A stretch of DNA of 64,000 nucleotides from Eledone cirrhosa (GCA_964016885.1 OZ024747.1:58900001-58964000), one strand, 5' to 3'; shown: positions 663-62,849, counted from the stretch's first letter. Numbers and translations are program-made. Notes: a model not told the origin generated them from the letters alone.

Positions 663-1292
663 TATTTATGTATGTATGTATGTATGTGCGTGTGTGTGTG
701 TCTATGCAGGTGATCCGAACATAAAACGTCTAGAGAAACAATGCGTAATCTATTGCAAGAGAACTTATTTCGCATTAATAAAGTTCCATACACTTAACAT
801 ATCTGCGCGACCTCAGCTTTCGGTGTCCAATTATTGCCACCACTGTAAATTGGAGGAGTCGCTTCAAAATTGATCTCATATCGTGCGCTCAAACAAAAAC
901 ATTTTTGATGAGAGGCCAGCTTTGAAGAGGCTTTATGCACTATAGAGTGATGAGCATAACTGATATTATATGTATATACTGTGGTAAAAGTTTGGTAGAA
1001 ATATCCAAGGGTAAGAGCACTCAGTCTATAGGACGAGTTAAGTTTAAATAGTTATAACAGTGACATATACAGGTACTTTAATTTCGTTGGATTCTGGATC
1101 CCAACTCATTTAACCTATTTTAGGTTGGGCTGAATGAGTTTTACAAGCATATGTTACTGTTGTAACTATATATATATATATATATATATATATATATATA
1201 TATATATGTGTGTGTGTGTGTGTGTGTGTGTGTGTGTGTGTGTGTGTGTGTGTGTGTGTGTGTGTGTGTGTGTGTGTGTGTGTGTGTGTGTG

Positions 1293-1522
1293 TAAAAGGT
1301 AAACAGAAATAACAACACAATCGGTACAGTATTTGGAAGGTATATATTAGGTTAACGCTTGATATAGCAGGAAGAGGGTATTAACGTTTCGGACGCTAGT
1401 CCTTCATCCGAAGAAGAAAGAATGAGAAATAAAATAGATTAAGGGGACGGGCGGGATGGAATTGGAAGAAATGTCTTTAGATAAAAATAATAGGTCGATT
1501 CATGTTGACATCTCTTGCAAAA
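1293..1522 (-). mobile_element. PLE pseudo-LTR-derived repeat with minimal hammerhead (copies 36428-36672 minus, 27640-27862 plus)
   Basis: Three-copy consensus TCTT-CTGATGA-A-GGAC tanc GTCC-GAAA-CG-TT-AAGA at ~1382-1415, ~36515-36550 and 27744-27779. All three end at a (CA)n or (TA)n tract. Confidence 0.72.
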
Positions 1523-3043
1523 TATACGCATACAATGTGGGTGTCTAAATATGGCAAGTGAGAAAAAAACGCCAATCAGCGGATATTAACCACGCAATTT
1601 CAAAATCCTAACTCCTTTTCGATGTTCAGAGCACGGAATCCAAACAAGGGAGATAACTACTATAGCCTTAGTTGATCCAAGCTTTCGGGTATAAGTTAAA
1701 CAATTTCCTATAAATCATATACACTTCTGCTTTTTCTACCAAATTTCACTCAGACAATGTTCGTGGCGGTATTGATGATGGGGATGTAGTGGTGGTGATT
1801 ATGATTTTGGTGAGTCTGTGGGAGTTTAAGCGCAGTCAATACTAAGAATAGTAATGAGGAGAGTATAAAGCTAGAGATTAAAAAGGATATTCCTTTGATA
1901 CAAAGGAATATTTTGAACCACAATATCGAGCAGAAGAAGAAGAGAAAAAAGAAGAGAGGTAGGGGGTAGAGAAAGGCGAATAACAACGAGTACTACAACA
2001 ACAACAAGAATAAAAACATCCCCAGCAACAACAACAAGGATAAGAAAATAAACAAAGAATTTATATATGTGCATGTATATACATACATGTATATTTAGTT
2101 TATATATATATATAAACATATATATGCACATATACATACATATGTGTATATATAGTTTATATATATATATATATATATATATATATATATATATATATAT
2201 ATATAAACATATATATGTACATATACATACATATATGTAGATATAGTTTATATATATATATATATATATATATATAAACATATATATGTACATATACATA
2301 CATATATGTATATATAGTTTATATATATATATATATATATATATATATAAACATATATATGTACATATACATACATATATGTATATATAGTTTATATATA
2401 TATATATATATATATATATATATATATAAACATATATATGTACATATACATACATATATGTAGATATAGTTTATATATATATATATATATATATATATAA
2501 ACATATATATGTACATATACATATATGTATATATAGTTTATATATATATATATATACATACATACACAAACACACACATATATATATATGTGTGTGTGTG
2601 TGTGTGTGTGTGTGTGTGTGTGTGTGTGTACATATGCATACGCATACACACATACATGAAACAAGAAGAAAAAGACAGGCGAGCCAAAATCGATAACTGT
2701 AGTTTGCTGTAGGAATAATAGAATAGATTGAAGTTTCCGAATTACTATCAGGTTCTAAAGTAATGCCAATGCTAAGGAATAATTGGTAAAGCTGAATGTT
2801 TTTGTTTGAAGGAGGCAGACGATAGAACTGTGTGTGTGTACTGTAATGGCGGAAAATGAGACTTGCGTACACAGTGAGAATAGGATGTCGTGTTTGACTG
2901 GCGCGATATACATTCTTATTATTTTCTCTGCAACAACGCAATGGATGCATTTTCACTTATATATGCACGTCGGTCTGGACTGGCACACACACATATATAT
3001 ATATATATATATATATATATATATATATATATATATATATATA

Positions 3044-3237
3044 TAGGAACCAGTAAGACCCCGACAGCTGAGCTCAAGCCGTTTCGACGGTTAATTCTGG
3101 ACTCAATTAGCCGTCGAAACGGCTTGAGCTCAGCTGTCGGGGTCTTACTGGTTCCTATTACCCACTCTACTACCTCAAGTATTGAGTACTTTGGTGCGTT
3201 ATGGTCCACCTGGTTCCTTACCACATTTCCTTCGTTA
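3044..3237 (+). mobile_element. Hairpin+tail mini-element, family A, copy 1
   Basis: Inverted repeat 3044-3157 (~53 bp arms) followed by an ~80 bp tail, embedded in (TA)n on both sides. Confidence 0.85.
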
Positions 3238-59554: not shown

Positions 59555-59612
59555 TTCATTCTGAGGATTGAAAGCAAAACCTTTTGCTTTTAAGAAACCA
59601 CTGGTAAATGGA
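59555..59612 (+). ncRNA. Hammerhead in the Naiad-type pseudo-LTR (mirror copy 54373-54430; diverged GUG-site paralogs 57715-57772 and 55940-55997)
   Basis: TTCATT-CTGAGGA-TTGAAAGCAAAA cc TTTTGCTTTTAA-GAAA-CCACTGG-TA-AATGGA. Confidence 0.8.
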
Positions 59613-59735
59613 ATAATTGCCTTATGTTGTTTATTACATAATAATAATAATATATATATATATATATATATATATATATATATATATATATATATATATA
59701 TATATATATATTACAATAATAAGAATAATAAAACA

Positions 59736-59909
59736 AAAAGGACGAGACATTAGATTTAATAAGGTGTGACGCGAGTTTTGCGATTGATCAGCTCAAGGTT
59801 AGATCTGTATCGATCGGCCCAGATACAAGTCGAACCTGGAGCTGATTAATTGCGAAACGCACGTCACACTTCAATAAACGTACTGAAGATCTAACACCCC
59901 GTCCTTTTT
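59736..59909 (+). mobile_element. Older diverged hairpin element with hammerhead-like 3' half
   Basis: Imperfect inverted repeat centred at ~59815. GC-GAAA-CGCACG-TC-ACAC then AATAAA. Confidence 0.55.
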
Positions 59910-62849
59910 ATTATTATTATTATTATTATTATTATTACACTCTGCTTAGTACAACACCAATATACCTACTGGAAACTACACATCAAGTGCTTATTTTGGT
60001 GAAGCTACAGTAACTTGACGTTACAATCCCTATACTATATACATATGTGTGTGTGTGTGTGTGTGTGTGTGTGTGTGTGTGTGTGTGTGTGTGTGTGTGT
60101 GTGTGTGTGTGTGTGTGTGTGTGTGTGTGTGTGCGTGCGTGCGTGCGTGCGTGTGTGTGTGTGTGTGTGTGTGTGTGTGTGTGTGTGTGTGTGTGTGTGT
60201 GTGTGTGTGTGTGTGTGTGTGTGTGTGTGTGTGCGTGCGTGTGTGTGTTAAAAAGATGTTTATATTAGTATTTCCTGAAACTATATATATATATATATAT
60301 CCCAAACGACATCAGCAGTAATAAATGCCAGGACAAATTCAACAAGACGTTTTAAGACAACAACGACGACATCAACAACAACAGTAACACCTACAATAAA
60401 ATAAGCAACAAGTATGTGAATCTGGCAGCTGTTACACTTTAACTGTAATGATGAACTAAATTAGAGAGAATGTGTGTTTATGTGTGTATATATATATATA
60501 TATATATATATATATATGCACGTGTGTGTGTGTGTATAGTGTTTGTATGTATATATATGTATATGTGTGTATGTGTGTATGTGTATGCATGGAGTGTTAC
60601 AAATTCATATATAGACACATCTTATGTACATACTCTTTAAGTTAGCATAAATTTAAACTACACACTATACAAACACCAAAAACGTTGCTATGATGCGACA
60701 GCCTCAATTCCACGTTTTAGCTGAAAGCAATAATTGCCATATTAGGCTCCAAATCAAACCCTATTTCCAGTCTATTGGGTAATGTATGTGGCCTTGATTT
60801 GCATTGTTTAAAGAGGGAAAATGGGTAAGCATCGTTCATAATAATAGTTGAATTTGATCATTTCTGTCCAAGAGTCTACGCCGACTATCTTCGGGAGAGT
60901 TTTGTTGCATGCTTAAATGCGTTCTGGTATCAATAGCACTTCGGGGCATTCGTACATTTTAACATTCAACATTTTAAAACAAAAGCTTTACACTGATAAT
61001 TTTTAAAACAAACTTCTTAAATATATATTTTTAAAATCGTTAGTTTTATATCGAATAACAATAATATTCGATTTGTTTTGCAAGCAAACAGCCTCATTAC
61101 GCTATGTTTTTTAGATGACCATCGCCATGTTTTTGTTCTAACGGTGGAAAACAGAAGCTTTCCATATACTAATTTTGTTTTAAAAATCTATGAATCGAAT
61201 TTGCCAACATAGTCTGTTGTGCCTCCCTCCATTGATAATTATATACACATTTTCTTACCGCCCTCACTCATAACTCCAAACGCTCCTCCAGAGTCTGTTG
61301 TGAAACGATAAATTACTTAGTAACTAGTACATATAATGCCTATAATAGGGATAACGATATGTGCTCCATAATGTCCACATGTCAGATTGTGACAGATGTA
61401 GACTTGTATATCAGTTCCACATTGAGTATTCTAAACATGGTGGACGCAAGCATGACTGAGAAGCTTAGGAGTTCTCTTCGTAATCATTGGATCCCGTGTT
61501 CAATGCTACTGCTTACTAACTTTAGCAAACTCCTTCGATATAAACCTGAGTCGACCCAAACCTCGTGAGTGAAATTGCGCATGCGTAAATTGTTTGGAAG
61601 CCTGTTAAATGAATTGTACTTTTAATTTAACAGTTCAGCCTTGTCAACTATTAGGTCACGCTAATTCAGTCTGGAAGTTAAGTTAAGGGTACCCTTGTCT
61701 ATCGCATTCTCGGTGGAATGAACAACTGAATGGTCATGTCGACACCGTCGGAGGATCTATCATCATTTAAAACCACTCAATTGCAAGGGTCATCCCTACA
61801 TACACCATATCCACGCCCACTGTCATCATCATCAACCGCAGCATCGTCATTATCATCGTTCGATTGATGATAGTGATGATGATAATCACTACAGGAACAG
61901 ACCATCACAATCCTCTTCCATCTATTACATTTTTCATAAGCAGTTTTTGCCTCGTAGTCGGATGATTAACCCCGGCCCTCCGTGGCGTAATTTGAACACA
62001 AACTCAAATTCCCGGAACAAACACTGCAAAGCATCTAACCCAAGCCTCTAACAATTCCTAAACTGGTACTTTACTTTATAATAAACACCATATATCGGAT
62101 CTACTCATTAAGTATCCCAGATATGTAAGCAGCGAAGAGGCGTGACTGGGTGGTTAGATAATTGGATTCGCAATCGTGAGTTTGTGAGTTCGATTCCCGA
62201 ACCGGGCAATGCGTTATGTCCTTGAGCAAGACACTTTATTTCACGCTGCTCTTTCTACCTTGTTTTGCGACCGATGGATAGTATTAGCAATTGGAAAGAC
62301 CAATGGAAACATTGTTTCCTCGGTCCAATTTCAAGCGAATGAGGTCTGGGATCTTGTCGATCGACTGTAGATATGTAAGCAGTTAATTTGTATAGCAGTA
62401 GTACTATCCTAAATATATCAACAGTACTGTAATGTGGCTCGAGAATGTTTGTATGTAATAATAACAATGAGGTGGCGAATTAGCAATATCTTTACAACGT
62501 CGGAGAGAATGCTTTGCGGCATTTGTTCCGGCTCTTTGCACTCTGGGTTCAAATCCCACCGAGGTGAACCTTGCCTTTCATTCTTTCGAGGTCGATAAAA
62601 ATATGTACCAGTCCAGAACTAAAGTCAATGTTTTCCTCTGTCTTTGTCTCTCTCGGAAATCGGCTGTGTTTAGACCTGATTTAAAATGTTACAACGGCGC
62701 CCCTACGACTATATCGTGAGTTACGGGTTCATACATACACACTACAACAGCACTATTCCACAGATGTGAGAATTAATAGAATGTGAGTCTAGCATGTTTT
62801 TATGTGTATGTATGTAACAGAAGACTGTCTCATAGTTGTGAGAAGTGCT

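Follow-up and report, generated by a model that had tools for sequence, protein, structure and literature searches.

Hairpin-and-tail repeats in the Eledone cirrhosa genome read as outward-facing end pairs of Penelope-like elements

Results

The window analysed here, a stretch of 64,000 nucleotides from Eledone cirrhosa (GCA_964016885.1 OZ024747.1:58900001-58964000), contains many short repeats built as a fold-back inverted repeat with an unpaired tail on one side. We interpret them, with a probability of roughly 0.78, as outward-facing end pairs of Penelope-like elements (PLEs), mostly Hydra-type and in one case Neptune-like, that would be laid down as two complementary DNAs (cDNAs), with a short template for the 3044 family. 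An earlier note on this DNA had described the repeats as unrelated non-coding families forming a new, usually hammerhead-bearing and microsatellite-homing class mobilised in trans by Naiad-type proteins; the fold-back with its one-sided tail was seen again at the window places it named. Families are called here by a window position. End A is the tail-less end and end B is A plus the tail, both facing outward in hairpin copies, and L-numbers denote loci elsewhere in the E. cirrhosa genome. Sampling beyond the search loci covered 89 evenly spaced 10-kb stretches (890 kb of a 3.0-Gb assembly); copies termed untargeted come from this sample, from the window and from the flanks of loci fetched for other queries.

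Four families of short repeats share their ends with coding elements

The proposed PLE origin was borne out for four families: the ends of 3044, 51155, 33865 and 31472 are ends of the pseudo-long terminal repeats (pLTRs) of coding PLEs elsewhere in the genome. In longer copies with the same ends these four are contiguous with open reading frames (ORFs) for reverse transcriptase (RT) and GIY-YIG endonuclease (EN), and they are thus not the separate non-coding families they had been taken for. The 3044 parents lie in L064, L204 and L311-L329; the arm terminates the coding elements of L064 and L204, and in 8 of 19 ORF-selected loci arm and tail stand upstream of the ORF, with the tail continuing into the 5′ untranslated region (UTR). 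For 51155 (parents L100, L106, L202 and L203) the unit is found about 880 bp downstream of the GIY-YIG ORF, and L202 contains a 4.8-kb inverted insertion that carries a 624-aa RT/EN frame and is delimited by the A and B ends of this family. The 33865 arm terminates the element of L050; the other parents, L297-L309, show this element's upstream pLTR, tail and ORF start again, the pLTR being a partial tandem in L050 and L297-L308. The 31472 end terminates a 1.5-kb 3′ UTR behind a Neptune-like RT/GIY-YIG frame in L291 and L294. Candidate ORF links of 30722 (L152, L161, L205) and of 1293 (L200) were rejected, as the parts are separated by TA tracts.

The A and B ends of hairpin copies were also observed to bound kilobase insertions with an RT/GIY-YIG ORF, and arm lengths run from about 55 nt to kilobases with no fixed internal length. 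These results bear on whether the repeats could be miniature inverted-repeat transposable elements (MITEs) of a (TA)n-targeting DNA transposon. Short size, many copies, inverted repeats, fixed ends and TA flanks would suit such an origin, but the tailed end has no terminal inverted repeat, the arms are not constrained in length, and their sequence is that of the pLTR of RT-coding elements; the ORF links refute it for 3044, 51155, 33865 and 31472, and we consider it extremely improbable overall. The signature of a DNA transposon, which the earlier note had named among the findings that would speak against its view, was likewise not encountered: there are no terminal inverted repeats at both ends, and the tail is one-sided.

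Clade of the coding parents

In both window proteins and in the 51155 parent, CxCX5C, CxxC and CxH motifs surround a C-terminal GIY-YIG domain; C16, C18, C24, C117, C142 and H144 are invariant in all five aligned sequences, and the first cysteine of CxxC is changed in the copy at 53553. An RWR motif, in which R replaces the K of RWK, was found with DKT in L201/L200 and L314/L324, and RWR also in L299/L300/L304, so that the 3044 and 33865 parents show RWR and the 3044 parent DKT. For the 31472 parent, a CX2-5CxxC linker before the C-terminal GIY-YIG was recognised by eye in the broken ORFs of L291 and L294. By these motifs, and not by an RT tree, three parents are predicted to be of the Hydra clade, one is Neptune-like and none is classed as Naiad. 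Naiads are described as having an N-terminal GIY-YIG and no canonical hammerheads in the sections of Craig et al. (2021, PMC8557442) used here. The Naiad label given earlier does not fit, since RT precedes GIY-YIG in 52633-54038, L200, L202 and L294 and hammerheads are present. Mobilisation by the two window proteins, at 52630 and 56696, fares no better: both elements have their own, different ends, and for this reason 52633..54340 and 54349..59636 are not parents of the named short families.

A look-up of the window EN fragment in the Atlas placed 6 of 30 matches in a set with GIY-YIG on 23% of its members. Neither the window PLE fragments nor the Hydra-type ORFs matched a Pfam family; the one weak match, to RVT_1, was in L220. 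Another Penelope-like family with a different RT type (L220:767-2446, L229, L036) is common in the sample.

Pairing of ends and evidence for two cDNAs

Adjacent arms always combined one A and one B end, in 56 of 56 pairs for 3044 and 9 of 9 for 31472, the two families for which pairs were counted; the first end typing was unreliable for 51155, 58728, 965, 59736 and 30722, where alignments crossed the TA into the tail. Tails measure 60-100 nt, and in full-length copies the tail continues into the 5′ UTR and the ORF. Arms of one insertion diverge less than arms of different insertions (0.5 vs. 2.0% in 20 pairs of 51155, 1.6 vs. 4.7% in 51 pairs of 3044, 0.2 vs. 5.8% in 5 pairs of 58728, and 5.7 vs. 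8.8% in 9 pairs of 31472), indicating that both come from one source.

A single cDNA could produce such a structure by snap-back, if the cDNA begun at B stalled at an RNA structure, folded back by self-priming and regenerated the arm to A. The arms are nearly identical, some apices fall on palindromes (CATATG in 51155, TGAGCTCA in L192), and self-priming has been proposed for Adineta Penelopes in the part of the literature covered, all in line with this scheme. It accounts poorly, however, for the arm lengths. Among 56 pairs of 3044, which include query-selected loci, the A arm is longer in 28, the arms are equal in 22 and the B arm is longer in 6, and L204 joins a short tailed (B) arm to a long tail-less (A) arm. 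Arm-only copies, which start at the fixed stop described below and have no mirror arm (window 54839, L110, L275), also argue against it. A single folded-back cDNA is therefore insufficient unless a later deletion is assumed, and simple snap-back, as suggested earlier, appears improbable. The data favour two cDNAs over it, with arm lengths coupled.

In the two-cDNA mechanism, the protein of the element would nick both strands of a TA repeat and one cDNA would be written into each side. The cDNAs would start from two fixed points on the RNA, giving ends A and B. Their inner ends would then be joined, and we infer that trimming and small insertions at this joint produce the variable apex; the apices of untargeted copies are nearly all different. 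In vitro, PAc (Poseidon of Anolis) cuts and extends both strands with a preference for AT-rich targets, and its RT starts at two internal sites bounding the tail, as described in the sections of Frangieh et al. (2024, PMC11167929) used here. Two internal RT starts and cutting of both strands in AT-rich DNA would explain A, B and the TA flanks.

A stem of the form ACTC...GAGT near the tail start is a candidate RT-start signal: by a strict pattern chosen after viewing, it occurs in 4 of 10 tails (shuffle rate 0-1.2%), namely those of 3044, 51155, 58728 and L050, with variants in 965, 34057, 59736 and 31472. Folding of whole tails, by contrast, gave z-scores of only +0.7 to -2.6. A third starting position, within the 5′ UTR and downstream of B, is used by an inverted arm in L323 (760-812), which suggests an additional RT start point.

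A fixed stop and a proposed short template for the 3044 family

Of 88 untargeted 3044 arms, 57 have their end 45-62 nt upstream of A; 19 fall short of this range and 12 extend beyond it. The stop is one site 58 nt upstream of A, and the starts of 25 of the 36 anchor-retaining untargeted arms fall in a span of 4 nt. The site is initiator-like. Untargeted pairs were 29 short-short, 3 long-long and 0 mixed (one first scored as mixed proved to be long-long), a count that omits 32 unpaired arms in untargeted loci. In the ORF-bearing copies the partner arm passes the stop in all nine cases visible by eye among the 19 ORF-selected loci. If each arm were arrested independently, mixed pairs should be frequent; as none were seen, two template classes are likely. 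A similar stop is present in 51155 about 170 nt upstream of A; 965 has a more diffuse one, and 31472 has none.

From these lengths it is likely that the tiny form of 3044 was copied from a distinct short RNA template. The 5′ end of this RNA would be the stop (for 51155 the proposal is weaker), and the RNA would derive either from a pLTR promoter or from transcription of short copies. A search for RNA runs holding one stretch of 3044-parent DNA listed none and weighs neither for nor against such an RNA. Most of the major short subfamilies of 3044 have haplotypes identical or nearly identical to those of long copies, in favour of an origin of the RNA in the pLTRs of parent elements, and one 51155 haplotype, seen in 6 short insertions but not among the long arms sampled, hints at short masters. 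We further propose, tentatively and at somewhat less than even odds, that Hydra-type elements make, in addition to their full-length RNA, a short non-coding RNA starting at a fixed site just upstream of both RT starts, and that their protein copies it from both starts into a cut (TA)n. This would give rise to a MITE-like, ribozyme-less element of about 190 bp, equivalent to a short interspersed nuclear element (SINE), with about 90,000 copies, which may transcribe and re-copy itself. If true, this would be a distinct non-autonomous PLE class, apart from tandem retrozymes, and a genomic read-out of the 5′ ends of PLE RNA.

The stop could alternatively reflect leaky arrest of RT at a structure on full-length RNA, the short copies being abortive products. 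The 3044 stop lies in the helix II region of the hammerhead, that of 33865 was placed by eye at a stem base, and haplotypes are common to short and long copies, as arrest would have it. Yet pairs of a stopped and a long arm would then be expected, and none was present among 32 untargeted pairs, nor was any of 9 ORF-selected partner arms stopped; we give arrest a small chance. Recombination between direct pLTRs is less probable still. By deleting the interior it would leave an inverted arm and one pLTR, a product resembling hairpin plus tail, and solo pLTRs are known from Adineta in the literature as far as covered. Full-length upstream pLTRs (7/8) and inverted arms (9/9) pass the stop, however, and recombinants would therefore be long and not of about 194 bp, making this origin very unlikely.

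The short hairpins might also be independent non-autonomous families, copying themselves as units and borrowing PLE proteins in trans. The roughly 90,000 copies of 3044 (extrapolated), most of them short, and the coupling of short with short arms would be expected of such families, as would the 51155 haplotype confined in the sample to short insertions, apices that read through an earlier apex (e.g., L220, L252) and the closed unit of 30722. In conflict with it, the main short 3044 subfamilies have long counterparts of the same or near-identical haplotype, untargeted apices are nearly all different, and four families are contiguous with ORFs, so that we regard independence as unlikely, while taking it seriously.

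Several results, besides the unpaired arms mentioned above, count against reading the repeats as PLE end pairs made from two cDNAs and, for 3044, from a short template. No coding parent was found for 965, 59736 and 34057 among the loci examined, 58728 is linked to an ORF solely via its 79% similarity to 33865, and candidate ORF links of 58728 (L205) and 965 (L250) were rejected because TA tracts separate the parts. In one 51155 insertion (L063) an arm that starts at the stop is accompanied by a long one, and apex trimming after insertion could also give asymmetric arms. None of 8 upstream pLTRs of full-length 3044 copies begins at the stop (7 pass it and 1 starts at -45), and the same is true of 13 examined for 33865 (6 pass, 7 start downstream). 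This makes solo-pLTR recombination less likely, and also a lone transcription start at the stop. A pLTR promoter is still compatible with it, because the transcription start mapped for Drosophila Penelope lies within the pLTR although its upstream copies vary in length, according to the part of PMC2377424 used here. A cap-derived extra G at the stop was rejected, as untargeted copies were explained by partner-arm bases and targeted copies had been selected by query similarity. No empty allele was obtained at 4550-5160, where the contigs of four runs did not span the site.

The 30722 family as a tandem unit

The 30722 family consists of a closed 329-bp non-coding unit: 26 of 28 alignments reaching the far end wrap into its own start, and a minimal type I hammerhead core is intact in 11 of 38 spans. 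In the window (30722..31368, no single strand) a minus-strand head-to-tail unit of 329 bp at 30722-31050 wraps into 31051-31116 and is joined to an inverted partial unit at 31120-31368, with the minimal hammerhead decayed in both arms. The window element is thus a folded-back tandem unit, and the plain hairpin-plus-tail description does not apply to it. Judged from its sequence, 30722 is a putative retrozyme-like non-autonomous element that would need a PLE protein in trans. Non-LTR retrozymes are alike in being short, tandem, non-coding units with a type I hammerhead, as described in the part of PMC7229834 used here, and 30722 is unlike them in its minimal hammerhead and PLE-style inverted arms. 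Retrozymes have been proposed to be non-autonomous PLE derivatives tied to PLE pLTRs, with an analogy drawn to MITEs, in the sections of Li, Clavereau and Pollet (2026, bioRxiv 10.64898/2026.07.22.740005) that we cite.

The short form of 3044 has its apex within helix II and lacks the 5′ core; being neither tandem nor in possession of a whole ribozyme, this form is not a retrozyme. The view that the repeats are non-autonomous therefore survives in part, for 30722 and for the 3044 short form, which likely has its own short template, and not for the four families contiguous with ORFs.

Hammerhead motifs

A hammerhead descriptor gave 16 matches in the window, and 12 after microsatellite masking vs. 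0.27 ± 0.57 in 30 shuffles. The complete motif was found in 3 of the 8 named elements (33865, 51155 and 58728), which falls short of the claim that a hammerhead is usually present. By eye, all five 3044 copies and 59736 hold the 3′ half only, the hammerheads of 965 and 30722 are decayed in the window, and 31472-31915 and L064:5100-5170 have a variant core with U at position 3 and A at position 8 replacing C-G. Other 3044 parents combine C3 with A8 and may be inactive. Rfam returned no hammerhead family among the matches listed (for one scan, the best 150 of 410), and below-threshold microRNA (miRNA) and small nucleolar RNA models only. The pLTR of the coding elements carries a predicted hammerhead motif, of which many short copies hold just a part.

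Copy number, ends and target sites

The families are multicopy, as had been supposed: all six whose genome search gave matches have many copies. The 3044 family was found at 28 loci in 890 kb (about 94,000 genome copies by extrapolation), the 58728/33865 group at 14 (about 47,000, extrapolated) and 51155 at 5 (about 17,000, extrapolated). A genome search with 58920-59183, of a kind that skips very common words, gave no match, the 14 loci of its group notwithstanding. In the same 890 kb we counted 3 loci of 30722, 3 of 34057 and 2 of 965; for 31472 the tail probe gave 2 and a longer probe 11, and for 59736 the corresponding counts were 0 and 2. Fixed ends were confirmed, both being common to all 30 top 3044 loci (one 2 nt short). 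"Sequence-unrelated" proved too strong: 33865 matches 58728 at 79% identity across 130 bp, and the tail of 965 matches that of 34057 at 75.5% across 49 nt.

Siting at microsatellites holds for (TA)n and not for (CA)n, which was seen at 1 of 152 3044 ends. Tracts of (TA)n adjoin 139/152 ends of 3044, 44/49 of 31472 and 59/65 of 51155, compared with 6.1% of random positions; TA counts for four of the unreliably typed families come from a second end typing. At the tail-less end of 59736, (TTA)n adjoins 8 of 17 copies and (TA)n none. Inspection by eye of the TA flanks, which would hide a target site duplication (TSD), revealed none, and no dedicated TSD scan was run.

Features of the window

Three of the intervals named earlier, those at 33865, 59736 and 30722, needed revision. 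In the 965 family, whose hammerhead core has one extra base, the copy at 975..1168 (-) runs from a B end at 975 through an internally deleted hairpin to an A end at 1168, with the core decayed. The short 3044 insertion at 3044..3237 (+) has an inverted arm ending at A, an apex near the fixed stop, and a sense arm with the 3′ half of the hammerhead followed by an 80-nt tail to B; by sequence match it is the pLTR of a coding Hydra-type PLE. The earlier count of five 3044 copies was correct, the others being 4701..4894 (+, older subfamily), 18223..18399 (+, left arm shortened), 19899..20092 (-) and 49167..49363 (-), and a tail fragment was added at 39519..39576 (-). The 31472 family is represented by a hairpin with a tail of about 60 nt at 31472..31915 (+), the 3′ end of a Neptune-like coding PLE, and by a second end with arm and tail and no mirror arm at 18611..18821 (-).

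The interval 33865-34240 is a fusion of two elements. A tail-less arm at 33865..34040 (-), with a complete minimal hammerhead at 33915-33959, corresponds to the 3′ end of a Hydra-type coding PLE (L050, L297-L309), and is fused to a 34057-family element at 34041..34240 (-), whose hairpin with hammerheads (34057-34240) retains about 22 nt of tail. Fusions of ends from two PLE families, separated by little TA or none, also occur at L088:1919-1993, L082:9836-9965 and L193, and are possibly two-template insertions or later deletions.

At 51155..51473 (+), a 63-nt inverted arm ending at A is followed by a sense arm, whose minimal hammerhead (51286-51340) is complete, and by a tail of about 90 nt; this is the 3′ end of a Hydra-type PLE with its ORF in L202 and L203. 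A 5′-truncated, frameshifted Hydra-type PLE at 52633..54340 (+) comprises RT, a C-terminal GIY-YIG and part of the 3′ UTR. Next to it, another Hydra-type PLE forms a 5.3-kb palindromic insertion at 54349..59636 (no single strand) with arms 97-98% identical, a central GIY-YIG fragment at 56696-57292 and hammerheads at 54379-54424 and 59561-59606; it is a long form of the hairpin-plus-tail architecture. Different short elements lie in the mirror-image TA tract of its two arms: an arm-only 51155 insertion at 54839..55006 (-), which starts at the fixed stop of its family, and a 58728 element at 58728..59183 (+), with 182-nt arms 99% complementary, a complete hammerhead in both arms and a tail of about 90 nt. 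PLEs thus nest in TA runs within other PLEs. The 59736 element (+) has a hairpin with the hammerhead 3′ half, a TTA run and a tail of about 100 nt; it extends over 59712..60032 because the tail lies past the TTA run.

At 49412-49690, two tandem 92-bp hairpins in (TA)n precede a tail-like segment; this family is very common (15 loci in 890 kb) and may be another end pair. More hammerhead-bearing or hammerhead-like repeat ends were noted at 1293-1522, 27689-27862, 36429-36654, 36886-37057, 47560-47760, 25317-25382, 18992-19067, 19760-19799 and 24045-24079, none of them named in the earlier note. An unbroken 1056-aa endonuclease and reverse transcriptase frame (RVT_1, Exo_endo_phos_2) occupies 41131-44301 (-) and is probably a young long interspersed nuclear element of the RTE type. 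An abundant SINE-like repeat is found at 3918-4128 and in over ten other copies, with 38 match bins in the first 200 kb sampled.

Comparison with known systems

The anatomy described here does not define a new class, since it has already been published for PLEs with an endonuclease (EN+; Craig et al. 2021, bioRxiv 10.1101/2021.04.23.441226, PMC8557442; Arkhipova et al. 2013, PMC3846280; Schostak et al. 2008, PMC2377424). In the parts of these papers used here, EN+ PLEs are alike in their 5′-truncated copies, inverted 5′-side copy, tail at one end and pLTR hammerhead, as well as in the palindromic junction, solo pLTRs and microsatellite targets that hide TSDs. They differ in tail length, 30-40 nt compared with 60-100 nt here, and in the proportion of minimal two-arm products, which in 3044 outnumber long copies by about 10:1. 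A literature search that covered parts of the sources gave no account of a base-precise shared stop or of arm coupling, and the sections of the Octopus vulgaris repeat paper (PMC13282606) used here make no mention of such an architecture; the families may already be present in the O. vulgaris library, Dfam or Repbase. As the repeats resemble MITEs or unknown hairpins (Rfam offered below-threshold miRNA models), automated annotation could misfile them.

One of the closest known groups is the Hydra clade, which shares the C-terminal GIY-YIG, the CxCX5C linker, CxxC and CxH, RW(K/R), DKT, hammerheads and insertion into (TA)n in the sections of Craig et al. (2021) used here; their File S1, as far as covered, lists the octopus element Hydra-1_Obim with a (TA)n preference. 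Compared with that clade, E. cirrhosa has many more families and copies, with parents of up to about 3-3.5 kb. PAc belongs to a different clade from the parents described here, and cDNA joining and short RNA templates fall outside its study, as far as that text was covered. Chlamys elements such as MRC1, in the same portion of Craig et al. (2021), are likewise non-autonomous PLE derivatives sharing 3′ ends with autonomous families, but belong to another clade and host and form pLTRs and head-to-tail insertions. With anatomy, TA targeting and non-autonomous derivatives known, what is probably new is that both arms of 3044 end at one fixed stop and that short pairs with short. Tens of thousands of minimal two-arm products make it possible to test the mechanism of PLE end formation directly from arm lengths, junctions and haplotypes.

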